Origin: Mobula hypostoma
Taxonomy: Eukaryota
DNA: 64,000 nt
Assembly: GCF_963921235.1 (NCBI RefSeq)
Contig: NC_086097.1
Location: 176,144,001 to 176,208,000, forward strand
Direction: 5' to 3'
In this document: positions 13,982-59,446 of the stretch, piece after piece
How positions within the stretch are numbered: position 1 is the first letter of the stretch
How the letters are laid out: each line of letters starts with the position of its first letter
The notes under the pieces: model-generated
Databases searched by the model: none
The model's input: the letters and a program-made list of their open reading frames with translations, nothing else
What the model was told of the DNA's origin: nothing
Position numbers and translations under genes: made by a program

Positions 13982-15530
13982 TGTAATGTTCACTGCTGAT
14001 GTAACGGTTTCTCTGTAGCAGAAATGTTTGGGTTATGGCTAGGAGATAACGGGGTTTGGTATGCAGAGGTTAGCCAATGAGGAAATGGTGTTCTTTCTTG
14101 CGTCTGGGAGCTGGGTTTTTGTAGCCTTTTGTCGAGGAGTGATGAAGAGGGAAGATGCATGTGGAGAGAGCTGGTAGGCTACCGGATGGAGTGGACTGGG
14201 ATCGGAGGGTCCAAAGGTCGGTGACATTTGGAGGAGATCGATGGTGGAAGGATGACTGCTGAGTGAGCTCAAACTGGGACTTTGACTTTGACTTGGTCCC
14301 TTTTTTTGTTTTGTTTATTTTCATTACTAACCCTATATTCATATCAAGATTCATGAAGTCTATCATTTAATTGCAAGCACAAAATATTCTGCAGATGCTG
14401 GGGTCAAAGCAACACTCACAACAAGCTGGAGGAACTGAACAGGTCGGGCAGCATCCGTGGAAAAGATCCGCTGATATTTCGGGCCGGAACCCTTCATCAG
14501 GACTGAAGAGGGAAGGGACAGAGGCCCTATAAAGAAGGTGGGGGGAGAGTGGGAAGGAGAAGGCTGGAAGGTTCCAGGTGAAAAACCAGTAAGGGGAAAG
14601 ATAAAGGTGTGGGGGAGGGGAAGCAGGGAGGTGATAGGCAGGAAAGGTGAAAAAGGAATAGGGGAAAGCACAATGGGTAGTAGAAGGAGGTGGGACCATA
14701 AGGGAGGTAGTAGGCAGCTAGGGGAGGGGGCAGAGTGAAACTGGGATAGGGGAAGGGAGAGGGAGGGAATTACCGGAAGTTGGAGAATTCAATGCTCATA
14801 CCAAGGGGACGAGCACCTCCGCTCCATCTGCCACAACAGACAGGTTCTCCTGGTTCCCACCCACTTCAACTTTGCTTCACATTCCCATTTGGATATTTCC
14901 AGACATGGCCTCCTCTACTGCCATGATGAGGCTAAACACAGGTTGGAGGAGCAACATCTCATATACCGTCTAGGTAGTCTCCAGCCTCTTGGTGTGAACA
15001 TTGAACTCTCCAACTTCCCTCCCTCTCCCTTCCCCTATCCCAGTTTCACTCTGGCCCTCTCCTAGCTGCCCACTACCTCCCTTATGGTTCCGCCTCCTTC
15101 TACTACCCATTGTGCTTTCCCCTATTCCTTCTTCACCTTTCCTGCCTATCCCCTCCCTGCTTCCTCTCCCCTACCCCTTTATCTTTCCCCTTACTGGTTT
15201 TTCACCTGGAACCTACCTGCCTTCTCCTTCCCACCCTCCCCCCACCCTCTTTATAAGGCCTCTGCCCCTTCCCTCTTCAGTCCTGATGAAGGGTTCCGGC
15301 TCAAAGCGCTGACCGATCGTTTCCATGGATGCTGCCCGACCTGCTGAGTTCCTCCAGCTTGTTGTGAGTGTCATTTAATTGCATATGGTGCACTGTCTGA
15401 TATTTTGCGTTGTGGGTTTGTAACTGGGGGTGCATCACACAGCATCCACACAAACGTGATTACCCAGTTTGGCGGGGCCGAAGGCTGATTCCCCTAGTCA
15501 AACATGAGTTGGGCGAGCCTGAGGGTTACA
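13982..15530 (+). repeat. 5' LTR of Gypsy A, interrupted by a PLE at 14376-15370
   Basis: Runs tgtaatg...gagggttaca. Aligns with 21228-21588 plus 26543-26720. Confidence 0.92.
14376..15370 (+). mobile_element. Penelope-like element: GIY-YIG C-terminus plus pLTR, with an inverted upstream pLTR
   Basis: 13-bp TSD tcatttaattgca (14363-14375 / 15371-15383). Inverted arms ~14413-14805 and ~14988-15370 give the twin ORFs MVPPPSTTHCAFPYS on both strands. The middle reads EHLRSI...THFN...HGLLYCHDEAKHRLEEQHLIYRLGSLQP. Confidence 0.9.
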
Positions 15531-15639: not shown

Positions 15640-17038
15640 GTGATTGCCCGTAATTAATGCGTGCATGTTGAGTGGGGTGGATATTCATACTCCGGATGAA
15701 CTGTTAATTTGATTTTTGAGAATGGTTGAAGCTGTTGGCAAGGTTGAAATCGTAGCGCGAAAGTTAGATAAAATGGCAGGCTCAGAACTTGTTTTAGTTC
15801 AGACTAGCGCTGACATAATGGCGGTGGGACTGCCAGCGTCTATTGGTGACCCAGGTGAGGCGGGTCCATGGCCTGTCCATACTGTCAGGGAGGAGGAGAA
15901 GGGAGCCCAGCAGGCTGGGGCACAAGCTGAGTTGCCCGCAGTTGGGGGCAGAGATTTCAGAGACAGGGTTCTATCGTTTCTGAGGAGTGAGGGGAAAGAG
16001 TGGTTGGATTTGGAGGAGAGTTTAATCAGTCCCTGTCACCCAGTGAAGAGTAAGGGTTCTGAGTTGGCATCAGCCCTTACCTCCTTGGCGAATAAGTGGC
16101 CCAGTGCCCTGGCAGAGGGTCCCTGCTGGAAGTTAAGAATTTTCTCTGGAATAACACCCACCCCCGAGGGGGAAGAGGAGTATGAGACGTGGGTGGAGAA
16201 GACCTCTCAGTTGTTAGATGAGTGGCAGTGCTCTGACGACGAAAAGCGACAGAGATTGTTTGAAAGCTTGAAGGGGTTGGCGGCTGATGTAGTAAGAGGT
16301 GTGACGGTTAACTAACCCTCTGCGTCCCTTGCTGAGTATCTAGACTCATTAGAGAGCACTTTTGGTATGACAGGGAGCCCACTGGAGCTCCTGGGGGGGT
16401 GGGGGGCGGGTTTCAAAACATGTCAGGAGAAGGGGGAGAAGCTTTCCGCGACCTTTCTCGGCTAGAGAGGCAGCTAAATTGTTTGCAGCGCCGGGGGTCA
16501 TTCAGCGGCTGAAGTGGATGTTAAGGATGGATCAGATAGCCAAGGATGCTCAGTCCCAGGACATGATTGCTTGGGGTTTCTGACAATCCCATAAAATGCA
16601 CCCCCCTCCTTCATTTGTTCAGCTGAATAGAGAGGTGCGTGAGGAGGAAAACGCGTTGGGGCCGCGAGAGGATTCCGTCAGCAGGGTACAGTCCTTGGTA
16701 GTAGCCCCTTGTGGTGAAATGCCAGCCCAACCCGGGAAATGGTAAAGAAGATGGTGCAGAGATGAGGACTGAGATGTTCTGGGTGTTAGCAGCGGGTGTG
16801 GACCCTCCGTATGATAGGACTGGTAGAGAGGGGCCCCCCCGCAAGGGGACGGACTACGCAAAGGGCTGCGTGTGGCCGGGGTTCCGTGAGAAGAGGGGCA
16901 GCCGGTAGTGTGTTCTCTAACTGTGGGGAAGAGGGACACTTCCGGCCGGAATGTGAGCGGCAGGAAGACCCTCGGAGAGTGAGCTCCCGGGTATCTAAGC
17001 AGGGAGATGTGTCGGGAAACTTGGAGGAGATCCAGTAA
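15640..17038 (+). pseudogene. Gypsy A gag, PNMA/Ma-like capsid with a degenerate Zn knuckle (stops and frameshifts)
   Basis: KLRIFSGITPTPEGEEEYETWVE...EWQCSDDEKRQRLFESLKGLAADVV, followed by FSNCGEEGHFRPEC. Confidence 0.8.
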
Positions 17039-17099
17039 GGGAACGGCCTGGTCTCTCTGGGGGAAGACGTTCCCAGCAATGTACCAAGGAACTCCCGAA

Positions 17100-20000
17100 A
17101 GCAAAAGACCCTACGCCTGAAGGCTTAGTGTGATCACGCTCCAGTGTGTTGCTACAGATAGAGGGGATGTATGCTAAAGCCATACTTGACCCGGGTCGCA
17201 GGTCACATTACTGTACCATTCGTTTTACAACCAGTATCTGAAGCATTTACCCTTGACACCATTCAGTGCAGTGGAGATTTGGGGTAGCAGCGCTGGTGAT
17301 TATCCATACGACGACTATTTGTCAGTGAAACTGGAGTTCTCGGAGGCCGATGTGGGAGTGTCTGAGGTTCTTGATACATTGGTGCTGGTTTGTCCGGACG
17401 CTGTTGAGACAGGCGGCGTTTCAATTCTGGTGGGGATCAGCACCCCTCTTGTGAGGAGGCTGATGGGGACCTGCAAGGAGAAGGCGGATGAGAACTTTTT
17501 GGGGGCATTGTCCGTGCACCTGGTGTTTCGAGCTGCTTTTGAGGAAGTGCATGGCAGCATTGGGCCAGACACCGAATTTAAACGAGGGACTGTGTGGTTC
17601 ACCCAGTCGAAGCCAATGGTGGTACGGCCCGGGGAAGTAGCGAGAGTGATGGAGACCCCCAGATTTCCTGGAGTGCCTGAGGGTGAAGCCCTCTTAGTGG
17701 ACACTCCAGAAAACCATGACGGGGAGTCGGGATTTCTGACTGGGGTACTGGTGAGGCCCGAATTGCAGAAGGCCTCAGTTGTACAGGCAAGCAGGATGGC
17801 AGTGATCGTCAGGAACACTACAAAGAGGGAGGGCACCTTCAAGTGGGGGATGCTCCTGGCACAGTTGTTCCTGGTGATGGTAATGTCTAGTGTTCCCATG
17901 AAGTACGCTGGGGAGAAACTATTGGAAAAGGGGGAGAAGTTGCCTGCTGAGTCATTCAACTTTGGGGACTCCCCGGTGCTGCCAGGTTGGAAAAGTAGAG
18001 GCAGGATCAAGCAGTGGATCAATTGGGGGCTTCTGATGACGCCATACCACGTTTACTGTAACCTGACTGCTCTGAAGACAAATCAGCTGCCGGAATTAAG
18101 TCCAAGGGAAGGGGCAGCTGCTCAGCGAGATGATCCAGGCATTGGCACTATTTGGTCTGCGGTTGAAAAGGGAGGCATGGCTCAGGTGGAGAAGACGAAA
18201 CTCGCTTCAGTGCCTCCCTTACTGAAAGAATGGCCTCGGTTGGAGTTGAAGAACCAGATCTTATACCGGGTCACGTCACCCCCCGGACCGACCTCGGCGT
18301 TGCCAGCTGGTTCTGCCCGAGAAGTATCGGAGGATTGCGTTGAAGTCACTTCATGATGATTCTGGACATCTGGGGGTGGAAAAGACCTATGGATTGCTCA
18401 GAGACAGGTTTTACTGACCCCGAATGAAGTTGGAGGTTGAAGAATACTGCAAGTCGTGCATTTGCTGCATACGGTGGAAGACACTGCCTACGCAGGCAGC
18501 TCCTTTGTCCCACTTGCAGAGTGCAGGGCCCCTGGACCTGGTGTGTATGGATTTCCTGTCCATAGAACCTGATGCCAGCAACACGGCAAATGTCTTGGTT
18601 ATCAAAGACCACTACACGAGATATGCTCAGGCTTTTCCTATCAAGGACCAGAGGGCGGCTACAGTGGCAAAAGTGTTATGGGAGAAGTATTTGTTTATTA
18701 TGGCCTTCCCAGGTGGATACATAGTGACCAGGGATGGGACTTCGAGAGCAGACTCATCTATGAGTTACTGGGCATGCTTGGAGTTGAGAAGTCGAGGACC
18801 ACGCCCTATCACCCGCAGGGTGATCCCCAGCCTGAGCGGTTTAATCGGACCTTGCTAAACATGCTTGGGACCCTGGAGATCAGCAAGAAGAGCAGGTGGA
18901 GGCAAGAAGAGCAGGTATTGGGCATCTGGTTCATTGTTACAGCTGTACACGAAATGAAGCTACTGGGTACTCGCCATATTATCTGATGTTTGGGTGTGAG
19001 GCGAGGTTGCCCGTTGTCCTTTGTTTTGCGACTGACGAGGGTGACTTACCACCGAAGCCGTATCTGAAGTATGTGTCTGATATGAGGAGAGAACTGAAAA
19101 AGGCTTATGAGTTGGCTGGGGTTGCAGCTGCCAAGCAGAATCGTGGAAATAAGTCAAGTCAAGTCAGGTGTATTTATAAAGGACATTTAAAACAACCCAT
19201 GTTGACCAAAATGCTGTACAAACCATAACAGGTAGCTAAAATCACAAATACAAGAAACACAGATTTAAACAACAAGGCACACAGCTTATAGTCACAAAAT
19301 AAACAACACGAGCCAAAAATCAGCCACATCAGTAAGATTCAAATGCCAGTGAATAAAGGTAAGTTTTGAGCCTGGACTTAAAAGAGTCAATGGAGGGGGC
19401 AGATCTTAAAGGGAGGGGAATGCTGTTTCACAGTCTAGGGTCTACAACAGCAAAGGCGCAGTCACCCCGAACTTAAATTTAGATCGCGGGACAGCCAGAA
19501 GCCCCAATTCAGCTGACCTGAGGGACCTGGGAGTAGAATAATGGGTTGGAAGGTCTGTGATATGGTGGGGGGGGGCAGCTCATTTAGGGCTTTATAAACG
19601 AACAGGAGAACCTTAAAATCAATTCTGAACCATACTGGCAGCCAGTGGAGGGAGGCCAGGATAGGAGTAATATGGTCCCTCTTCTGGGCACCTGTCAGGA
19701 GCCTGGCTGCGGTGTTCTGGACCAGTTGCAGACAGGACAAGGACGACTGACTAATCCCAGAATACAGGGAGTTGAAATAGTCCAAGCGGGAGGATATAAG
19801 GGCGTGGATGACTTTGTCGAGATCTTCACAGAAATGACTTGATTTTCGCAATAGTATGAAGCTGGAAAAAACTGGCTTTTACTACTGCATTAACTTGCTT
19901 GTCAAACTTAAAGGCGGAATCAAATATCACATCAAGGTTTTTGACATGGGGTGTGACAAGGGTGGACAGGTTACCAAGACTGCTGGTAATCACTTTGATG

Positions 20001-22562: not shown

Positions 22563-23909
22563 ATGGAGGTTGAGGAATTTATAAAGGCGCCGACCTTGGA
22601 GGCATTAGAGGATGCCAGGAAATCGGATTTGGTAGCTGTGGCCAAACGGTTGAACCTTGCTAAGGGGAAGTCGACAATGAGGAGAGAGGAGATACACAGA
22701 GCTATCGTAGAGCACTATGTATCTAAAGGTGTGTTTCCCCAAGGCGAGCTGGAGGTAGTGTCTATTGAAAAACCTGCCGGAGACGCGGTACAGGTGCAGC
22801 TTGAAAAACTGAGACTCGAGCACGAGTTCCGGGTACGGCAGTTGGAGCGAGAAGAGAAGGAGAGAGAGTTAGAAAGGCAAGAGAAAGAGAAAGAGTTAGA
22901 AAGGCAGGAGAGAGAGAGGGAGTGACAGTTGGAGAGAGAAGAGAAAGAGAGGCAATGTGAGCGAGAAGAGAGAGAGAGGCAGAGGGAAAGGGAATTCGAG
23001 CTGGAGAAGTTAAGGATAAGGGCAGAGCAGGGGCCCGTGCCGAACCAAGGTGGAGGGTTCCGGGCGAGCCAGGAGGTTAGGCTGGTTCCCCCATTTGACG
23101 ATACCGACGTGGATCGGTACTTTCTCCATTTCGAAAAAGTTGCTACAAGTCAGGACTGGCCGAGGGATAAGTGGGCTGTTTTGCTTCAGATTGTACTGAA
23201 AGGGAAAGCCCAAGAAGCTTACTCAGCTTTGTCCACGGAAGATGCCCAGAGGTATGAGGTGGTGCAAGAGGCCATCCTCAGGATTTATGAGTTGATCCCG
23301 GAGGCATACCGGCAGAGGTTCCGGAATGCAAGAAAGCAGTGGGACTGCACATATTTAGAGTTTTCCCGTGAGATGCAGACATATTGTGAGCGTTGGTGCG
23401 CCTCGAAGGGGGTAGAGGGGGATTATGACAGACTGCTACAGCTGATCCTGATTGAGCAGTTTAAAGGTTGTGTCCCTAAGGGTATGAGACCCTACCTAGA
23501 TGAGAAAGAGGCAGCCACGTTAGCCACAACTGCTAAGTTAGCGGATGAGTATGCGTTGACGCATAAAATGAAGTTTGCCCCGAGTAAAGGTTACCAGAAG
23601 GGTAGTCAGGACGGCGGGGAGAGTCCGCCAGAAAAGTCAGAAAGTAAGCCGGGGACTAGTGAGAAGGATAAGGTAGACCGGGAGCAGTCTGGTAGGAAGT
23701 CTCCTGGGGTCGTCTGTTATAATTGCGGGAAAGTCGGACACTCTGCTTCCAGGTGCTTTGCCCCAAAGAAGGAGACGGGAAAAGGAAAAACGGCGATTTT
23801 GACTGGTTGTATCGAGCTGGTAAACAAATCGCTAGGACAGGACAGGACAGGTCTGCCAAAGTTCAGGAAGGGTGCGAGAGGTTTATCTCGGCCGGATTGG
23901 TGTCGGTGA
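22563..23909 (+). CDS. Element B gag: coiled coil, SCAN-like capsid domain, CCHC knuckle; one in-frame stop at 22923-22925
   Basis: ORFs 22563..22925 and 22929..23909 are in the same frame. Motifs VPPFDDTDVDRYFLHFEKVA, ELIPEAYRQRFR, LLQLILIEQF and CYNCGKVGHSASRC. Confidence 0.85.
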
Positions 23910-25550
23910 AGGAGGGGTTAAAACCAGTTCCAGTGCGGATCTGGAGAGACATGGGAGCGTGTCAGTCACTAATACTGAAGAGTATATTAGAGTTTAGCTC
24001 AGAGACCCAGACTGGGGAGGTCAAGGTCAAAGGTGTTGGGGAAGGGACAGAGTCAGTTCCTTTGCACCCGATACACTTACAAAGCAACCTGGTCTCTGGA
24101 CTAGTCACGATCGGGCTGAGGTCCGAATTACCGATGAAAGGCGTGGAGGTCTTGCTCGGTAATGACCTCGCCGGGGGAATCGTGTTCGAAGCAGTGAGAT
24201 TGATAGGTCAGCCTGCCAGCATTGAGGCCCCGCCCATGGACTCACAGGTTCATCACGGGACTGCGGTAGTAAATTTAGCTGAGACGTTTCTGCCAGCCTT
24301 GTACGAGAAGGGGGTAGAAAGTGAAAAGAAGGAGTGTAGTGAAACAAGAGGTAGTGAGGGAGCTGAGACAGACTTAGCATTAGCCAGGAAAGAATTTATG
24401 CAGGCGCAGGAGCGAGACGAGGGGCTGATGGTTTTGGCAGAGACAGCTTTGTCTGACACAGAATTAACAAGGGAACTAGTAGGCTATTGTGTGGAGGAGG
24501 AAGTGCTAAGGAAGAAAGGGAGACCAAGTACCGTACCCGCAGATGAGGAATGGGGGGTGGTGCAAAAGAGTTATGGGGATGAGATTTTTAACCTGGCCCA
24601 CAAGGTACCCCCCGGTGGACATTTTGCGGTGCTGGAGGAAACAGTTGGTGGAATCAAGAAAGAGGTTTACCGGCTGCCCAGGAGGGACGATGTTATTGAT
24701 TATGGCCGATGCGAACTGAGACGATCACAGGCTTTTGTTATGCTAACAAACCTAGTCGGTGTTAGCACGGAAATCAATGAAGCTAGGGTCCCCCTGATAA
24801 GAGAAAAAAACCATTTTGAAAAGATGAGTATGGTATCGACCAGATGGGAGAAGGCTATTGTCTTGGCCAGCTCTGCTGATAAGGTCTCTCCCTTAATCCC
24901 CGAACAAAGCGACTCTTTAGGAGAAGTAATTAAATGACTCACGCACGTGTGTTTGATTGTCCCGAGGTGATGCAAAGAACTGGGACATTGGGTGGTGTCT
25001 GTTACAATAGGTCAGCATAGTGAGCAATACTCATATAGAATGAGTAATGCAGTGACTAAAGGGCTGACGAACACAGAGGTGTGTATTGGCGATGTAATAC
25101 AGCTGTCTGAAGCCAGCTTGATAGTGAACCTTGAAAAAAATGAGTTCGGCCACACGAAGGTCACTTACCTGGGAATTGGGGTGACACAGGGGCAGCTGGC
25201 AGCGATGCAAGCTATAGTGCAGGCTATCTCTGACATCTCAACCCCGACAGACAAGAGGGCCCTCAGAAGGCTCTTGGAGATGGTGGGGTACTGTAGGAAG
25301 TTTTGCAATAACTCTGCGGTTACTACCCCTCCCCCTCCTACTAAGCCCTTGCGAGAGAAAACTGAGTCGGAATGGGACGACCCGTGTTATTGTGGTCCGG
25401 GACGAAACCCAATGAGAGGTTACATTGATCACAATTCATCAGTGTTTTTGGCCACTATGAAGTTTGCTAAGTTGGAGCCTGGTCTAAGGGATTATTAATA
25501 ACACATATAAAAGGAACAGAAAATGTGATGGCTGACTGTCTGTCAGGTGT
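23870..25550 (+). pseudogene. Element B pol remnant in the order protease, integrase-Zn, RT, RNase H
   Basis: Protease: RIWRDMGACQSL...LLGNDL. Integrase-Zn: EIFNLAHKVPPGGHF. RT: VNLEKNEFGHTKVTYLG...LRRLLEMVGYCRKF. RNase H: YIDHN and HIKGTENVMADCLS at ~25503-25545. Confidence 0.78.
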
Positions 25551-29694: not shown

Positions 29695-30335
29695 TGTCTG
29701 CTGCAAAAGGGAGGATGTTCCAATGACTACTCATTTCAATTTGACTTCCAATTCCCATTCTGACATATCAGTCCACGGCCTCCTCTACTGTCATGATGCT
29801 GCTAAACATAGGCTGAAGGAGCAACACCTCATACTCTGTCCAGGTAGACTCCAACCTGATGGCATGAATATCGATTTCTCCAACTTCTGGTAGCTTTCCC
29901 CCTCCCTTCTTCTCTCGTTTCCATTCTCCATTCTGGTTATGCTCTTACCCCTTCTCTTCCTGTCACCTATGCATCGACCTCTGGTTCCCCTTCTCCATTT
30001 CTTTCTTCCATGCTCCACTCTCCTCTCCTACTAGATTCCTTCTTCTCCACCCTTTATCTCTTCTACTCATCACCTCCCAGCTTCTTCATTCCTCCTCAAC
30101 ATATCCACCTCCCCCTCACCGGGTCTCACCTATCACCTGCCAGCTTGTACTCCTCCACCTCCCCCCATCTTCTTATTGTGGCCTCTGCCCCTTTCCTTTC
30201 TATGCACTTTTTTCCTGGCAAAGTGCCTCGTTCTGATTCATTTGTTGTTCATTTGCCCCATAGATGCTGCCTGACTTGTTGACTTCATCCAGCATTTTGC
30301 CTGTATTGCTCAAAGTTTGTAATACCTGCAGAATC
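29695..30335 (+). mobile_element. Degenerate PLE (GIY-YIG C-terminus plus pLTR)
   Basis: THFN...HGLLYCHDAAKHRLKEQHLI...LQPDGMNIDFSNF, then a pyrimidine-rich tract and catagatgctgcctgac. Confidence 0.82.
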
Positions 30336-30799
30336 TTTTGTGTTAATAATTTTCCAGTCAGACAGCTTTTTGATGGGTTTAGATACTTTTCCTGTCCCTG
30401 AGGGCCCATCAGCTTTTTTGGGAATTTACACAGCTGCATTGAAGCCTCAGGTAAAGTCAAAAAACAGGGCTAGGCAAGTGTTCACCCTGTCAGGTTCTGC
30501 AGGTCACCAAATAGGAATAGCACACAGCATGAACAATCAGCAAAGTTAACACTTAACGACCACACATACAGGTTAATTCACAATTACATCTTGTTGATTG
30601 ATTAATATTAGAAGTTAGCTCTGAGATAAGACTGAATCAAATCTTACCCAACAATGAAGGCTCACATAGAACAATACAACACAAGAACAGGCTCCTTGTT
30701 ACGCAATTTTATGTTAAACGAATTAAAGAAGTAATTAACTGCCTGACTGAACTAATCCCCTGGACCAGGTGGTCCACATTCCAGAGTTCTGAAAGTGGT

Positions 30800-33510: not shown

Positions 33511-34110
33511 GGCTCCTGTTTAAGTTGTAAGAGGAGAGATTTAGTAAGAACTTTTTTACACAGGGGTAGTAGATACGTATATGGAATGAGCTGCAATAAC
33601 AACTTTTAAAAGACATCTGGATGGATAAATGGACAGGAAACATTTTGAGGGATATGGGCAAACACGATGAACTTAGATGGGTATCTTGGTCAACATGGAC
33701 TACTGGTCAGAAGGGCCTGTTTCTATGTTGTACGGCTCAATTACTCTATTGCCTCACCTTTGTTTTTTTATGGTATCTGATCTTCTATTCAAATGACTTT
33801 TCCCATTCCTGGAGTACCCACCTAGTAAATACTCCTTTATTCTTTGTTGACCTTTTCCTTCTGAATCAGCAATTCTTGATATTCAGCTCCTTTTCCAAGC
33901 TTTCAATCCCTTTGAGGCCTGATCTCTTCATAGTCACCAGGCTTCCTTCTGTTGTAGCCCTTGGTCATTCTTGTTTCATATTGTTCCACCACTGGCAGCA
34001 GCTCATGAAGGGCATAGAGCTGGGACAGGAAGACTTGAGTTATAAGGAGAGACAGGATAGGTAGAGACTGTTCTCCCTGGAGGAAAGGAAGGTGAGGGTG
34101 ACCTTTTGAA

Positions 34111-35854
34111 CTATTCAGTTGTCTTTTAACAGCAGTAAACCATTCAGTAGTCGTTTCACCATTCATTCAGTAGTCGTTTAACAGTAGTAAACCATTCAGT
34201 AGTCGTTTAACAGCAGTAAGCCATTCAGTAGTCGTTTAACAGCAGTAAGCCATTCAGTAGTTGTTTAACAGCAGTAAACCATTCGGTAGTCCATTCAGTA
34301 GTTGTTTAACAGCAATAAGCCATTCAGTAGTCATTTAGAAGCAGTAAACCATTCGGTAGTCATTTAACAGCAATAAGCCATTCAGTAGTTGTTTAAGAGC
34401 AGTAAACCATTTGGTAGTCATTTAACAGCAGTAAACCATTCAGTAGTTGTTTAACAGTAGTAAACCATTCATTCAGTAGTCTTTTAACAGTAGTAAACCA
34501 TTCAGTAGTTGTTTAACAGCAGTAAGCTATTCGGTGTTGTTTAACAAAAGTAAACCATTCAGTAGTCGTTTAACAGTAGTAAGCCATTCCGTAGTCATTT
34601 AACAGCAGTAAACCATTCATTCAGTAGTCTTTTAACAGTATTAAACCATTCGGTAGTTGTTTAACAGCTGTAAGCCATTCGGTGTTGTTTAACGGCAGTA
34701 AACCATACAGTAGTTGTTTAACAGCAGTAAGCCATTTGGTAGTTGTTTAACAGTAGTAAGCCATTCCGTAGTCGTTTAACAGTAGTAAACCATTCATTCA
34801 GTAGTCTTTTAACAGTAGTAAACCATTCAGTAGTCGTTTAACTGTAGTAAACCATTCGGCAGTCGTTTAACAGCAGTAAGCTATTCGGTAGTCGTTTAAC
34901 AACAGTAAACCATTCATTCAGTAGTCTTTTAACAGCAGTAAACCATTTGATAGTTGTTTAACAGCTGTAAGCCATTCGGTGTTGTTTAACAGCAGTAAGC
35001 TATTCGGTAGTCGTTTAACAGCAGTAAACCATTCGGTAGTCGTTTAACAGCAATAAGCCATTCAGTAGTCGTTTAACAACAGTAAACCATTCATTCAGTA
35101 TTCTTTTAACAGTAGTAAGCCATTCCGTAGTCGTTTAACAGCAGTAAACCATTCGGTAGTCGTTTAACAGTACTAAACCATTTGGTAGTCGTTTAACAGC
35201 AGTAAGCCATTCAATAGTTGTGTAACAGCAGTAAACCATTCGGTAGTCCATTCAGTAGACCTTTAACAGTATTAAACCATTCAGTAGTTGTTTAACAGCA
35301 GTAAACCATTCTGTAGTTGTTTAACAGTAGTAAGCCATTCAGCAGTCGTTTAACAGCAGTAAACCATTCTGTAGTTGTTTAACAGTAGTAAGCCATTCGG
35401 TAGTCGTTTAACAACAGTAAACCATTCATTCAGTAGTCTTTTAACAGTAGTAAACCATTCAGTAATTGTTTAACAGCAGTAAACCATTCGGTAGTTGTTT
35501 AACAGCAGTAAGCCATTCGGTGTTGTTTAACAGCAGTAAACCATTCGGTAGTCGTTTAATAGCAGTAAACCATTGGGTAGTTGTTTAACAGCAGTAAACC
35601 ATTCGGTAGTTGTTAAACAGCTGTAAGCCATTTGGTGTTGTTTAACAGCAGTAAACCATTCGGTAGTCATTTAACAGTAGTAAGCCACTCCGTAATCGTT
35701 TAACAGCAGTAAACCATTCGGAAGTTGTTTAACAGCAGTAAGCCATTCGGTAGTCGTTTAACAGTAGTAAGCTACTCTATAGTCGTTTAACAGCAGTAAA
35801 CCATTTGGTAGTTGTTTAACAGCAGTAAACCATTTGGTAGTTGTTTAACAGCAG
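34111..35854. repeat. 29-bp minisatellite, about 60 units, consensus cagcagtaaaccattcggtagttgtttaa
   Basis: Head-to-tail units with point variants and recurrent ttca-duplicated units. No unique spacers. Confidence 0.97.
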
Positions 35855-37428
35855 GGTGGAAGCTGACTTTGCGCCCGTTCGTATGTGCTTTCAGGCTTTC
35901 ATTGCTTCTGCCCAACAGAAGAATGGAGATGAGAGAAACATTGAATGGGGTTTGCGGCCCATAATGAGATAGACAGAAGCACAAGCACATGTCAAAATTA
36001 AATCTGATGAGTTCCAGCCAACATTCTCCAGAATTTGAAATCAGAACCTTTTGTACTTAAAGCACTGTATCGACAAATTTCAACACACACTCAGCGATTC
36101 AGGAACAGCCATCCGATTCCTAAATGGACATTGAACCCTTGGACGCGACCTCGCTTTTTTAATATATAGTATTTATGATTTTTGCACGACTTTTAATCTG
36201 ATCACTATACATATACTGTAATTGATTTACTTATTTATTTATTATTATTTCATTTTGTATTTTTTCCTTCTATATTATGTATTGCATTGAACTGCTGCTG
36301 CTATGTTAACAAATTTCACGTCACATGCCAGTGATAATAAACCTGATTCTGATTCTGAAATGTAATGCAATTTGCCCTGCACTGATATTAATGAGAAAAT
36401 AAACTGTGACCATTCTCGTTAACTACACCCCTCATGGTGAGAGATGTAATTAGCATTTATGATGTAATTCACAGTTTATTTTTTCCCAGGGTAGGGATGA
36501 GGATTGCAAAATGAGAGAGCATAGGGTTTAAGGTAAGGGGAGGAGGAGATTTAAAGGGGACCTGAGTGGCAACTTTTTCACACAGAGGATGATTGGAATA
36601 TGGAATGAGTTGCCCGAGGAAGTGGTTGAGGCAGGTGCAATTATAACATATGAAAGGCATTTAGACATGGATATGAAATGTTCAAAGGGATGTGGGCCAA
36701 ATGCAGGCAAATGGGATGAGCTCAGTTAGGCAACTTAGATTGTATGGGCGAGTTGGGCTGAAGGGCTGTTTCTGTGTTATATGACTCTATGACTCAGTGG
36801 AACTGCAACATCTTCAATGTCTAAGTCTGTTTTGCTGCTTTGTGGCTGACAGCTTGGTGTATTTGATTACATTCAGTTGAACTCTGCTTTACCTGATCAC
36901 TTTTACAGATACACCCTGTGTGATTTGCAATCCATCAAGAGCTTAAAGTTCGAAGGGTAAAACATGCACATTCCATGAATGTACACCCAGTAAATTTTCA
37001 TCCCTCGTAGATATTGGAACATGTTAGTTACTGAGAAATAAATCAGTGGCATGGGAAAACTGGTGCTAAATTTGAACAACCAGTGCATGTTTATTTGTCA
37101 GCACAGAGTCTTCCTAGTTAATGTCAGTGCAAGGCAAATTGCTTTAAGTTTGTTGATAGAGTGCTTAAGTACAAAAGGTTAGGGTTTCTGATTTCAAATT
37201 CTGGAGAATGTTGGCTGGAACTCATCAGATTTCATTTTGACATGTGCTTGTGCTTCTGTCTGTCTCATTCTGGGTCCTATCCAGCAGTTCCAGGTCGCAA
37301 ACCCCATTCAATGTTTCTCTCATCTCCCTTCTTCAGTTGGGCAGAAGCAATAAAAGCCTGAAAGTACATACGATCCAGCTCAAGGTCAGCTTCCACCCTG
37401 CTGTTAAACAACTACCGATGGTTCACTA
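35823..37428. repeat. Inverted duplication: arms ~35823-36392 (with a ~280-bp LINE 3' insert at ~36080-36357) and ~37117-37428
   Basis: MCLCFCLSH appears on both strands (35787..35990 minus, 37161..37361 plus). ccagccaacattctccagaatttgaaatcagaa is present in both orientations. Confidence 0.88.
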
Positions 37429-45962: not shown

Positions 45963-45976
45963 AATTAGCTGTGTAA

Positions 45977-47445
45977 CTTAAGGGTTCATAAGCCACCTGG
46001 CCCAGATGATCTGCATCCTAGGGTTTTGCATGGTGCCAGAAGATTGGAAAATTGCAAATGTCATTCCACTCTTTAAGAAAGGAATATGTTGGAGTCAATT
46101 GTTAAGGATGAGGTTATAGAGTACTTCTAATCTCCTCAATGATCTCCAACAGGTTTGTCAGGTAAGATGATCCCTTAAGGAAACTATGCTAACTTTGTTC
46201 TATCTTGTCCTATGTCACCAAGTACTCTATAACCTCATCCTTAACAATTGACTCCAACATATTCCCAACCACTGAGGTCAGACTAACTGGTCTGCTTTCA
46301 TTTCTGCTGCTTCCATCCTTTCTTAAAAAGTGGAATGACATTTGCAATTTTCCAATCTTCTGGCACCATGCCAGAGTCCAATGATTTTTGAAAGATCATT
46401 ATTAATGCCTCTAGAATCTCTACCACTATCTCTTTCAAAACCCTAGGATGCAGATCATCTGGGCCAGGTGGCTTATGAACCCTTAAGTCTTTCAGCTTTT
46501 TCAGCACCTTCTTCCTTATAATAGTAACTGTATTCACTTCTCTCCCTTCACATACCATGACATTTAGCACACTGCTAATGTCTTCCACAGTGAAGACTGA
46601 TGCAAAATACTTATTTAGTTCATGTGCCATCTCCTCTCCTTGTCCCCCATTATTATTTCTCCAGCCTCATTTTCTAGCAGTCCAATATCCACTCTCATCT
46701 CTCTTTTATTTTTATACTTGAAAAAGCTTCTTCTATCCACCTTGATATTGCTTACTAGCTTGCTTTCATATTTCATCTTTTCCCTCCTATTTGGATTTTC
46801 AAAAGGCACTTAATAAGGTGCCATACTTGAGGCTGCTTACCACTTAAGCATTACAGGAAAGTTACTGGCATGATTAAAGCATTGGCTTATTGGTAGGAGA
46901 CAGCGAGTGTGAATAAAGAGGTCCTTTTCTGGTTGGCTGCCATTGGCTAGCGGTTTTCCTCAGGGGTTGATGTTGGGACTCTTTCTTTTTATGCCGTATA
47001 TAAATGATTTAGATAATGAAATAGATGGCTTTGTTGCCAAGTTTGCAGATAATGTGGAGATAGGTGACGATGCAGTAGTTTTGAGGAAACAGGAAGGCTG
47101 CAGAAGGACTTAGATAGATTAGGAGAATGGGCAAATAAGTGGCAAATGAAATACAATGTTGGAAAATGAATGGTCATGCATTTTGATAGTAGAAATAAAT
47201 GTGCAGACTATTTTCTTAATGGGGAGAAGATCACAAAATCTGAGATGCAAATGGACTTGGGAATCATTGTGCCAAACACCTGAAAGGTTAACTTGCAGGT
47301 ATAGGTGGTGAGGAAGGCAAATGTAAAGTTAGCATGCATTTCAAGAGGTCTAGAATACAAGAGCTGGGATGTGATACCGAGGCTTCATAAGGCACTGCTG
47401 AGGCCTCACCTTGAGTATTGTGAACAGTTTTGGGTGCTTATCAAG
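45977..47445. mobile_element. Rearranged CR1: plus-strand mosaic 45977-46126, minus block ~46127-46789, plus block ~46790-47445
   Basis: Minus ORF 46298..46630 (GPDDLHPRVLKE...EDWKIANV). Plus-strand DFQKAL...KFADN...RPHLEYCEQFW. Confidence 0.8.
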
Positions 47446-48204: not shown

Positions 48205-48915
48205 AAGAGTAAACAGCTGATGATTTGGGCCAAGACCCTTCATCAGGACTGAAGAGAAGTCAGAGTGAGAAGGTGGGGGGGGGGGGAGGAAGAAATACAA
48301 GATGTCAGGTGATAGGTGAAACTGGGAAAGGGGGAGGGGGTGAGGTAAAGAGCTGGGAAGTTGATTGGCTGGAGAAGCGGGGATCTGATAGGAGAATAGA
48401 GAAGACCATAGAAGACGGGGAAGGGTGAAAGAGCACCAGAGGGAGGCGATGAGCATGTAAGAAGAGGAGATGTGAAAGGGAACCAGGAATGGGGAATGGT
48501 GAAGGAGAGGAGAGGATGGGGACAATTACCAGAAGCTTGAGAAATTGACGTTCATGCCATCAGGTTGGAGGCTACCCAAACAGAATATAAGGTGTTGCTC
48601 GTCCAAGCTGATTGCGGCCTCATCCTGGCAGCAGAGGAAGCCATGGACTGACATGTCAAAATGTGAATGAGAAGTAGAATTGAAATGGGTGGTCACCAGG
48701 AAATCCTGTTTTTTGTGGTGGATGAAGTGAAGGTGCTTGGCGAAGAAGTTGCTCAATTTACGTCGGGTCTCACTGATATACAGGAGGCCACACCAGGTGC
48801 ATCGGATATAGTAGATAACCACAAGAGACTCAAAGGTGGTGTTGCGTCACTTGGAAGGACTGTGAGGGGCCCTAAATGGTAATGAGGGAGGCATTGTAGG
48901 GGCAGGTGTAGCACG
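48205..48915 (-). mobile_element. PLE fragment: GIY-YIG endonuclease plus pLTR
   Basis: ORF 48526..48822 reads VIYYIRCTWCGLLYISETRRKL...HFN...LGSLQPDGMN. CTGATGA core at ~48215-48250. Confidence 0.88.
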
Positions 48916-55849: not shown

Positions 55850-56871
55850 TAGTAGGACAAGACCAAAACATATGAGTTAAAGAGGCTATCTGCCCTGAAC
55901 ATCTATCACAAAAAGGATTAATATGATAATAAAAACGAGCTAATTTATCTTTGGACATATGTGCTCTATGAACAACTTTAAATTGAATTAGGGAATGTTT
56001 AGCACAGATAGAGGAAGTATTGATTAATTGTAAAATCTGCCCCCAGTCATCCACGGAAATGATAGAGCCCAATTCCTGTTCCCAATCTAACCTAATCTTA
56101 TCAAATGGAGCTTTCCTAAGTTTCATAATAATATTATAAATCATAGCCGATGCACCTTTCTGACATGGATTAAGGTTAATTATAGTATCTAAGGTATATG
56201 TAGGAGGAAGCATTGGAAAGGAAGAAAGTATAGTACTTAGGAAATTTCTAACTTGTAGATATCTAAAAAAAATGTATTGTTGATAAATTATACTTATTTG
56301 ATAATTGTTCAAAAGACATAAGGGAACCGTCTAAAAATAAATCCAAAAACCGTGAAATACCCTTAGTCTTCCAAATTTGAAAAGCACGATCCGTGAAAGA
56401 GGGAGGAAAAAATATGTTACCTAAAATAGGAATCGCTAGCCCAAATTGGTTAAGATCAAAAAATTTTCTGAATTGAACCCAAATATGTAAGGTATATTTA
56501 ACTATTGGGTTAGAGACCTGTTTGAGACGTTTCAAATCAAAAGGAAGAGAGGAACCTAAAATAGAGCCAAGTGTATAGCCCTGAGCAGATTGTAATTCCA
56601 ATACTACCCATTTAGGAATGGATAGTATATCCTGGTCGAGTAACCAAAATTTCATATGTCGAATATTAACTGCCCAATAATAGAATCTAAAGTTAGGTAA
56701 TGCTAAACCTCCATCTCTCTTGGCTTTCTGTAGATGTATTTTACCCAGTCTTGGGTTTTTATTTTGCCAAATAAATGAAGAAATTTTTGAGTCAACTTTA
56801 TCAAAAATTTTGGCAGAAAAAACATCTTAACTGCATTAATACAACCAATCAAAGTTAAATATAATGGAAAC

Positions 56872-57052
56872 AACAGGAATTCTGCAAATGCTGGAAATTC
56901 AAGGGCCCCTCCCCCTCCAACTTTCAAATCCCTTACTCACTCTTCCTTCAGTTAGTCCTGATGAAGGGTCTCGGCCTGAAACGTCGACTGCACCTCTTCC
57001 CATAGATGCTGCCTGGCCTGCTGCGTTCACCAGCAACTTTGATGTGTGTTGC
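56872..57052 (+). mobile_element. Short PLE pLTR insertion with an inverted 5' segment
   Basis: 17-bp TSD ttaaatataatggaaac (56855-56871 / 57053-57069). Same family as 2322-2502. Confidence 0.88.
56954..56989 (+). ncRNA. Minimal type I hammerhead ribozyme motif
   Basis: agtc-CTGATGA-agg(gtctcgg)cct-GAAA-C-GTC^-gact. Stems I and II pair and the core is complete. Stem III is reduced to the palindrome ACGT. Confidence 0.82.
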
Positions 57053-57295
57053 TTAAATATAATGGAAACCATTTAGATGAAAGTTGAGTAATATGGTCAA
57101 TTAAGGGTAAAAAATTAATCTTAAATAAATCTTTGTGTTTACAAGTGATTTTAATCCCAAGATATGAAAAATAATTATTAATCAATTTAAACGGAAAGTT
57201 GTGATATAAGGGAAGTTGTTTATTAATCTGGAAAAGTTCACTCTTACTAAGATTTAATTTATAACCTGAAAAAAGACTAAATTGTGCTAATAAAG

Positions 57296-59446
57296 CTAAA
57301 ACAGCAGGATGGATTTTTGAGGATTAGAAATATATAAAAGTAAATCATCAGCATAGAGTGATATTTTATGGGACTTTAAGCCCCGAGTTATCCCAGTAAT
57401 ATTTGGAGATTCTCGAATGGCAATTGCAAGAGGTTCTAATGCAATATAAAATAATAAAGGACTAAGAGGACAGCCTTGTCGAGTACCTCGAAAAAGAGGG
57501 AAAAAAGGTGAGCTTAAAGAGTTAGTACGGACCGAGGCTACAGGAGAATGACATAACAGTTTAATCCAGGATATAAATTTTGAGCTAAAATTAAACATTT
57601 CAAGCACCTTAAATAAGTAAGGCCATTCTACTCTATCAAAAGCTTTCTCAGCATCTAAAGAGATAACACACTCAGGAACATTTTGTGAGGGGATATAAAC
57701 AATATTTAACAGTGTACGTATGTTATAGAAAGAGTAACGACCTTTAATAAAACCCGTTTGGTCTTCCGAAATAATAAAAGGGAGTACTTTTTCTAATCTG
57801 TTTGCTAATAATTTAGAAAAAATTTTAGAATCAACATTTAATAAAGATATTGGTCTATAAGATGCACATTGAGCAGGATCTTTATCCTTCTTTAATATTA
57901 GAGACATTGACGCTCTATTGAAAGATTCGGGAAGTTTACCCAGTTTTAATGAAGCCTCGAAAACCCTACAGAACCACGGGATTAATGAAGATGCAAAACA
58001 TTTATAAAATTCTGTGGTAAACCCATCAGGGCCAGGAGCTTTCCCCAGGTTCATAGAGGAAATAACATTCTTAATCTCATCAGTGGTAATGGGAGTATCT
58101 AGAATAGAAGACATATCCTGTGAAATCTCAGGGAATTCTAGGTTATCTAAAAAATCATTCATATATTTAGAGTCTCGAGAGGACTCTGATTGATATAAGG
58201 AAGAATAAAAATCAAAAAAGGTTTGATTAATCCCCGCATGATCAAGTATCAGACGATCATTTTGATTATTAATCTGATTAATTTGAGACTTAGTATAATT
58301 AGATTTCAATTGGTTAGCCAACAGTTTGCCAATTTTATCACTGTGTACATAAAATTCACTTCTTGTTTTCTTTAATTGGTTTACAATCAAGGACGAAAGT
58401 AATAAACTGTTTTCCATTTGAAGTTCAGTTCTTTGTTTATATAACTCCTCAGAGGGAGCTGTAACATATTTCTTAACAATTTCCTTAATCTTGTCCACAA
58501 TTACCAACTCCTCCTGCTTCAGCTTCTTCCTCAAAGCAGCAGAATACGAGATAATCTGACCACGAATATAAGCTTTAAAAGTATCCCAAAGAATGTTCAC
58601 AGAAATATCCTCTGTATAGTTGATTGTAAAAAAAAGATCAATCTGTTCATTCATAAAGTTAACAAAGTCCGAGTCCTGAAGCAACAGCGAATTAAAACAC
58701 CAGTGTCTATTATTTTGTGTATTGGCCTGGATTTTAATAGAAAGCTTAAGTGGGGCATGATCCGCAATGGTTATAGAGTCATAATCACATTTAATCACTG
58801 AAGAAATAAGATGAGAGTCAATAAAGAAATAATCAATTCTTGAATAAGAATGGTGAACATGTGAAAAAAAAGAAAAATCTTTTTCCTGAGGATGCAAAAA
58901 ATGCCAAATGTCCGTCGACCCAGAATCAGAGAGGAATGAATTAATCAAAGTTGCAGATTTATTAGGTAAGGTCTGTAGAGGAGCTGAACGGTCCAAAGCT
59001 GGAGATAAACAGGTATTAAGATCTCTGCCCCAGATCAATGAAAACTCATTCAAATTCGGGAACTGATTGAATAATGATTTATAAAATTCCGGACAGTCCA
59101 TATTGGGAGCATAAACATTAACCAAAATTACCTTTTTATTAAATAGTAAACCACTAACCAGTAGAAATCTACCATTCGGATCAGAGATAATATCATGTTG
59201 TATAAAAGTAACTGAGGAATCTATGAAAATAGAGACGCCTCGAATCTTAGCGTTAGAGCTCGAATGAAACTGTTGTCCCTTCCAGAATTTAAAAAAACGT
59301 AGTCTGTCCCCCCTCTGCACATGGGTCTCTTGTAAAAATAGAATTTGTGCTTTAAGTGTCCGGAACACTTTAAAAACTTTTTTCCTTTTAATAGGATGCT
59401 TAAGACCATAAGTATTCCAGGAGACAAAATTAATAATAGACTCCAT
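57296..59446 (-). pseudogene. L1 ORF2 (APE endonuclease plus RT), open for about 716 codons, then frameshifted
   Basis: FVSWN...LQETH...NVYAPN...SRIDYFF...DHAP, KAPGPDGF, YRPISLLN, SLDAEKAFDRV, GTRQGCPLSPLLF, YADD. Confidence 0.92.

Follow-up and report, generated by a model that had tools for sequence, protein, structure and literature searches.

The segment at positions 56872-57052 of the window (the whole 64,000-nt stretch of contig NC_086097.1 from Mobula hypostoma that was analyzed) is very probably a 5′-truncated, two-armed insertion of a Penelope-like element (PLE), likely of the Neptune type, that entered a decayed LINE-1. The hammerhead motif carried by this insertion would be the standard minimal ribozyme of the element, which was brought along with the copied DNA and is likely inactive on its own. 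The motif class, its link to PLEs, and the layout of the insertion have all been published previously.

Anatomy of the insertion and its LINE-1 host

The insert measures 181 bp and is located between exact 17-bp direct repeats. A preliminary description of this DNA gave the same length. The insert is not one colinear piece and is composed of an inverted tail of 32 nt, two filler bases, and a body of 147 nt. The tail (56872-56903) lies on the minus strand with respect to element sense, as judged from its order in other copies of the window and from the loose ends of contigs. It is colinear with the body in window copies at 2.3, 14.4, 44.6, 47.7, and 51.0 kb and inverted in the 181-bp insert, and loose ends behind position 57058 (149 and 256 contig records) read the tail in sense. 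The body (56906-57052, plus strand) is a 5′-truncated piece of the pseudo-LTR without an ORF, and it ends exactly at the tail boundary. At the head-to-head junction, the two filler bases (56904-56905) are likely untemplated. Related contigs begin to match at 56906, and letters other than those of the insert precede this position in 18 and 59 contig records. Joints that lead from 56901-56903 to 56954-56957 are present in both comparison organisms, A and B (one to two contigs each among the joints listed), which points to the existence of tail-only arms elsewhere as well. There is no tandem repeat at the locus, and the insert contains only one motif.

The two copies of the flanking repeat (56855-56871 and 57053-57069) are identical, cannot be extended, and consist mostly of A/T (14 of 17 positions). 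Apart from a minisatellite at 34109-35854, which is built from about 60 units of 29 bp, this is the sole 17-mer repeated at a distance of 50-600 bp in the window. The last four bases of the left copy match the element tail in register and could be derived from the element. As a result, the sequence is consistent with a true duplication, or cut stagger, of 13-17 bp.

The insertion resides in a decayed LINE-1-type ORF2 on the minus strand (55851-59446; endonuclease, RT, and zf-RVT), which is frameshifted near both 57308 and 56270 and has a deletion at about 56805. When 198 bp (the insert plus one repeat copy) are removed in silico, 82 of 95 LINE-1 ORF2 relatives, these being the relatives of at least 1000 aa among the 120 listed, show a gapless match through the junction. 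Removal of 181 or 215 bp instead leads to stops. Because the LINE-1 frame is restored in this manner, the earlier proposal that the perfect 17-bp repeat is a real target-site duplication proved correct. Moreover, four joints in organism B contigs (one contig each, among 15 listed of 88) omit 199-203 bases at the site, and these contigs presumably represent paralogous, empty LINE-1 copies. The host flanks differ from the organism B majority at 14 listed positions in 586 bases. Two additional observations concern the host. It lacks about 14 codons near 56805, just downstream of the insertion site, and related contigs carry the missing sequence. In addition, P0023, a Hypanus sabinus protein annotated as 'IQ calmodulin-binding motif-containing protein 1 isoform X1', shares 70% identity with the RT region of the LINE-1, and it is likely that this annotation absorbed LINE-1 sequence.

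The insertion was also called recent in the preliminary description on the strength of its perfect repeat. By itself, a perfect 17-bp repeat bounds age weakly, with simple arithmetic giving a 95% bound of about 9% change per copy. However, the insert differs from related copies at only two or three of 179 element positions (56887, 57001, and possibly 57003), where the comparison organisms are possibly other species, and this suggests that the copy is indeed fairly young.

Several other features share the window. Nested near-perfect inverted repeats (94-100% identity, 46-62 nt each) at 45967-46497 lie in a LINE that looks like a CR1 type and resemble a foldback duplication. Inverted arms of 124 and 89 nt (92-97%) that are separated by about 1.1-1.3 kb at 35836-37416 possibly belong to a small DNA transposon. 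Finally, ORFs at 15713-18356 and 22926-24937 resemble, by eye, the gag/protease regions of Gypsy-type LTR retrotransposons.

The hammerhead motif and its 10.1-11.1 pair

The 36-nt motif at 56954-56989 (plus strand) reads as a minimal type I hammerhead in which the conserved core nucleotides C3-A9, G12-A15.1, U16.1, and H17 are all present. Stem I (56954-56957/56986-56989) comprises four base pairs, or five with the addition of a U·G pair between 56953 and 56990. C3 corresponds to 56958 and the C3-A9 segment occupies 56958-56964, whereas the GAAA portion of the core is located at 56978-56981. A palindromic segment (15.1-16.1/15.2-16.2) at 56981-56984 is present and there is no helix III, with the predicted cut falling directly after C17 (56985). 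An extra nucleotide, A56965, is positioned between 9 and 10.1, and stems I and II are able to form. These features confirm the preliminary spelling of stem I, the full core, and the predicted cut after C56985, along with the assignment of the motif to the minimal, helix III-less type I hammerheads of PLE pseudo-LTRs.

A different outcome was obtained for stem II, which had been drawn as agg/cct. This register has a pair probability of 0.02, versus 0.73 for a computed fold in which A56965 is bulged and four base pairs follow (56966-56969/56974-56977), including G10.1·U11.1. The folding model thus indicates that the bulged-A register is most likely the one used, in which case the 10.1-11.1 pair is G·U.

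Measures of how unusual the motif is give a mixed picture. The core pattern is matched twice in the 64-kb window and never in 100 shuffles, and a descriptor demanding both stems has one match in the window (56954-56989) versus one in 300 shuffled windows, with both strands searched. The covariance-model search that the preliminary description had proposed as a check returned nothing for this motif, as no Rfam hammerhead family matches 56954-56989 at the gathering score or at E ≤ 10. Its folding energy is likewise unremarkable (z -0.09).

Minimal hammerheads of metazoan PLEs were described in 2014 by Cervera and De la Peña (PMC4209133), and the ray motif shares with that description the type I architecture, the lack of helix III, the palindromic 15-16 segment, the extra base between 9 and 10.1 that is part of the published consensus, a stem I of 4-5 bp, and a location in the pseudo-LTR of elements found mostly as dispersed, single, truncated copies. 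In contrast, G10.1-C11.1 is called highly conserved in the same report, whereas G·U occupies this position here and in most closely related copies. Also, stem II is 7-8 bp long in the reported Schistosoma families and 4 bp long at 56954-56989. In the searchable text of the supplement to that report, figures aside, there is no shark, skate, or Callorhinchus entry.

The departure at position 11.1 appears to be a property of the subfamily. Among contigs of organisms A and B, T accounts for 82-84% of depth at 11.1 in the closest relatives. The corresponding base in metagenome minimal hammerheads is C in 117 of 133 matches and T in 8 of 133, where the search pattern fixed both G's of 10.1-10.2 and left 11.1 free. 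No majority difference from related copies is found inside 56954-56989 among the differences listed, and the one other change listed within the motif (56982) reaches 7-8% of depth. Alignment of contigs may be biased toward the reference letter, yet a non-reference majority of 92-97% appeared at 57001. On these sequence comparisons, the copy is intact relative to its own subfamily, and it is the subfamily itself that departs from the usual G-C at 10.1-11.1. Because G·U at this pair also occurs among members of the PLE minimal hammerhead class, the assignment of the motif to that class stands. We also considered whether U11.1 might be a private mutation caused by CpG decay and rejected this idea, given that its share of depth far exceeds that of the other listed CpG change (56982). 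A G10.1·U11.1 pair would be expected to lower hammerhead activity, and a search of the open literature found no paper with a measurement of this effect.

Many contig records match only positions 56954-56990 and then enter the flanks of other subfamilies, with 337 and 548 records diverging before this block and 496 and 769 diverging behind 56990. The sharing of the block between differing flanks suggests that it was subject to past selection, and 5′ breakpoints may add to the upstream pile. Covariation was examined at two levels. Stem I/II covariation, which the preliminary description had named as a test among family copies, is not seen among the seven window copies, which are few and decayed (0 of 8 pairs change on both sides). 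It does emerge across Penelope families. For the copy plus 52 distinct metagenome motifs of the same length (from the 133 matches), six of eight pairs covary, with 34 cells versus 11.0±2.8 after shuffling, although one family dominates this set and the comparison is not a probability. Pairing across families amounts to 78%, versus 10-47% with the register slid.

Parent element and route of insertion

An RT with a C-terminal GIY-YIG domain is absent from the 181-bp copy, persists as remnants in copies of related subfamilies, and is present in homologues. In two copies of the window (48.2-48.9 kb and 14.8-15.4 kb), remnants of the GIY-YIG C-terminus lie 264-281 nt upstream of the hammerhead. A tblastn search with P0001, a Hypanus sabinus protein, gave matches at 48532-48913 (E 2e-40) and 14811-15014, and the window copies match this protein at 61% identity. 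P0001 has a CX4CxxC linker before its GIY-YIG motif (Pfam GIY-YIG E 0.002, below the cut-off), and RVT_1 is found in 17 of 21 longer relatives of P0001. Pfam left the three endonuclease remnants of the window unrecognized. A CX2-5CxxC linker is present in both P0001 and P0002, and the second half of the linker aligns to window positions 48839-48913. This linker is characteristic of Neptune and is also found in Nematis, and it is seen in the proteins of relatives rather than in the 181-bp copy. The endonuclease-bearing window copies belong to other subfamilies, which are related to the insert at 85% over 47 nt and 75% over 75 nt. We infer the clade through this indirect link, by which the parent element is probably of the Neptune type.

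Canonical EN+ PLEs of the Neptune clade, as described by Craig et al. 2021 (PMC8557442), resemble the ray family in their 5′ truncation, an inverted truncated partner, a tail of 30-40 bp on one end only, a hammerhead in the pseudo-LTR, and relatives with a CX2-5CxxC linker plus a GIY-YIG domain at the C-terminus. The 181-bp insert differs in being an extreme minimal case, with one arm reduced to the tail and no remaining ORF. The role of hammerheads for PLEs is called unclear in that article. Titles and abstracts in the open literature on twin priming in Penelope, hammerheads in cartilaginous fish, and Penelope in batoids include no paper on the ray family.

The family is very abundant. Contig records numbering 34,543 and 83,795 (organisms A and B, respectively) match an 801-bp stretch, mostly on the element, and this depth is not a copy number. 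More distant comparisons come from 123 metagenome loci (2 of 64 parts), which served as out-groups only. Of the 123 loci examined, 14 match PLE proteins, and in 10 of these the same hammerhead is located 90-201 nt downstream of a PLE endonuclease match on the same strand. A blastn comparison of the 123 loci with the insert gave no similarity at E ≤ 1e-3, and viral contigs produced 0 matches to the family pattern. In four metagenome loci (L001, L038, L040, and L098), two minimal hammerheads sit back to back, one on each strand, with about 10 nt between them, which corresponds to head-to-head arms joined at the edge of stem I, like those of the window's family.

The one-tailed, two-armed layout of the 181-bp insert recurs in window copies at 2.3 kb and 14.4-15.4 kb. 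The former (2309-2515) is a two-armed copy of the family with a 13-bp duplication and a longer tail on one arm, and the junction with its inverted arm of about 50 nt falls at the outer border of hammerhead stem I. The latter (14363-15383) is a head-to-head copy of another subfamily, in which two inverted arms of about 400 nt surround a GIY-YIG remnant. It likewise has a 13-bp duplication and a tail on one arm only, and its transcript would form a long hairpin. Longer 5′-truncated PLE copies with decayed GIY-YIG C-termini are present at 48214-48913 (minus strand) and 29696-30340 (plus strand).

A route for the insertion can be proposed by analogy with PAc, a Poseidon element of Anolis (Frangieh et al. 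2024, PMC11167929), whose protein cuts and extends both strands, favors A/T-rich DNA, initiates at two start sites on either side of the tail, and relies mainly on unprocessed RNA as its template. The RT/GIY-YIG protein of the ray element would cleave the two strands of an A/T-rich target at positions 13-17 bp from each other. At the outer start site, the top-strand end would then prime and copy only the 32-nt tail, and the bottom-strand end would prime at the inner start site and copy 147 nt, through the hammerhead cut site. Subsequently, the two cDNAs would be joined head to head with two filler bases. The ribozyme of the parent element would process precursor RNA only when dimerized within tandem transcripts, probably helped by protein.

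Several features of the insert agree with this scheme, which is carried over from an element of the Poseidon clade. As with PAc, there are two putative start sites at the tail bounds, extension on both strands, an A/T-rich target, and an apparently uncut template. The body arm begins at the inner site and extends 80 nt beyond the cut site. Because the copied DNA runs through this site, the template RNA would have been either uncut at position 56985 or re-ligated. The inner start is located 67 nt beyond the cut, compared with about 85-92 nt in PAc. Aside from the difference in (inferred) clade, PAc is reported to start without target homology, whereas short matches between target and element exist at both ends of the ray insert, at four of four bases on the left (in register in two of five other copies) and five of the first six bases of the right repeat copy. 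These matches, in this one case, suggest assisted priming.

Activity of the copy and alternative readings

The preliminary description raised the possibility that the copy is catalytically competent, which the present analysis does not support. There is no intact partner in cis, the modeled 10.1-11.1 pair is G·U, and minimal monomers in the published work are reported to lack cleavage, with weak cleavage by dimers (PMC4209133). Only one other core-intact copy is found in the window (at about 2.3 kb), and it lies on the opposite strand at a distance of 54 kb and has the 10.1-11.1 pair and the first pair of stem I broken. By analogy with the published monomers, a lone copy is likely inactive.

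Computed folds point in the same direction. An active dimer can be drawn without steric conflict, but its computed energy of -11.5 kcal/mol exceeds that of the best dimer (-26.7 kcal/mol) by 15 kcal/mol and that of two monomers by 7 kcal/mol. The predicted ribozyme fold also vanishes in its flanking context. However, the folding model assigns stem I a probability of at most 0.16 in 11 of 11 PLE-linked motifs of other hosts as well, and so the predicted misfolding does not discriminate. A hairpin formed by 56939-56951 and 56958-56969 was considered as an evolved off-switch and rejected, as stem II was also lost in 185 of 200 trials in which the upstream 47 nt were shuffled.

Perhaps the copy nevertheless works in vivo, with a plus-strand transcript that pairs in trans with another transcript of the family, or that is folded by protein, and is cut after C56985. 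The core is intact without a majority difference among those listed for the motif, the 36-nt block is common to subfamilies with differing flanks (496 and 769 loose ends behind 56990), and partners in trans could exist because the family is very abundant. Furthermore, cleavage by the anole element's ribozyme is reported to occur only with the element protein (PMC11167929), and one of nine dimers from Xenopus showed very good cleavage in vitro (Li, Clavereau and Pollet 2026, 10.64898/2026.07.22.740005). We nonetheless regard this reading as quite improbable, given the G·U pair and the energetic cost of the active dimer noted above. In addition, the known dimer mechanism concerns tandem copies in one RNA (PMC6155905), the anole RNA-seq as reported has no RNA ends at the cut site (PMC11167929), and the window has no recognizable host-gene ORF of at least 200 aa.

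Another reading holds that the unit is a non-autonomous retrozyme monomer that arose from a small circular RNA through hammerhead cleavage and ligation. If a circle had been re-ligated, the copied DNA would contain the cut junction unbroken, as is observed here. Non-LTR retrozymes are also short and non-coding, carry type I hammerheads, derive from PLE pseudo-LTRs, and are reported to be present in one chondrichthyan genome (10.64898/2026.07.22.740005). But those units are tandem, whereas the locus has no tandem unit, and the insert is arranged head to head with a tail and a target-site duplication rather than as a permuted monomer. Related copies also reach upstream into the endonuclease ORF and have variable 5′ ends, as 5′ truncation predicts, making a retrozyme origin very improbable. 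Lastly, the view that the motif is a chance match, or that the flanking repeat is no insertion scar, could draw on the missing Rfam match and a folding z of about 0, but is refuted by the shuffle controls, the cross-family covariation, and the restoration of the LINE-1 frame.

As a single locus, the truncated Penelope-like insertion matters little, since very many such truncated copies exist and their motif class has been known since 2014. What it offers is a clean record, in which the exact duplication is fixed by a coding host and the junctions agree with a model of PLE integration with two start sites and an uncut template. The whole family, rather than the 181-bp copy, is the test bed for the role of the ribozyme. 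It is tempting to speculate, though we consider it unlikely, that a very strongly amplified ray subfamily spread with a ribozyme weakened by G10.1·U11.1, whose conservation across subfamilies still exceeds that of its flanks and which was kept as a protein-gated switch or binding site and not as a free cutter, and that tail-only insertions reflect two-ended priming at both start sites, aided by target matches of 4-6 bases, on uncut RNA. If this were true, the very large number of copies in such a genome would allow both the weakened ribozyme and the two-ended priming to be tested directly.
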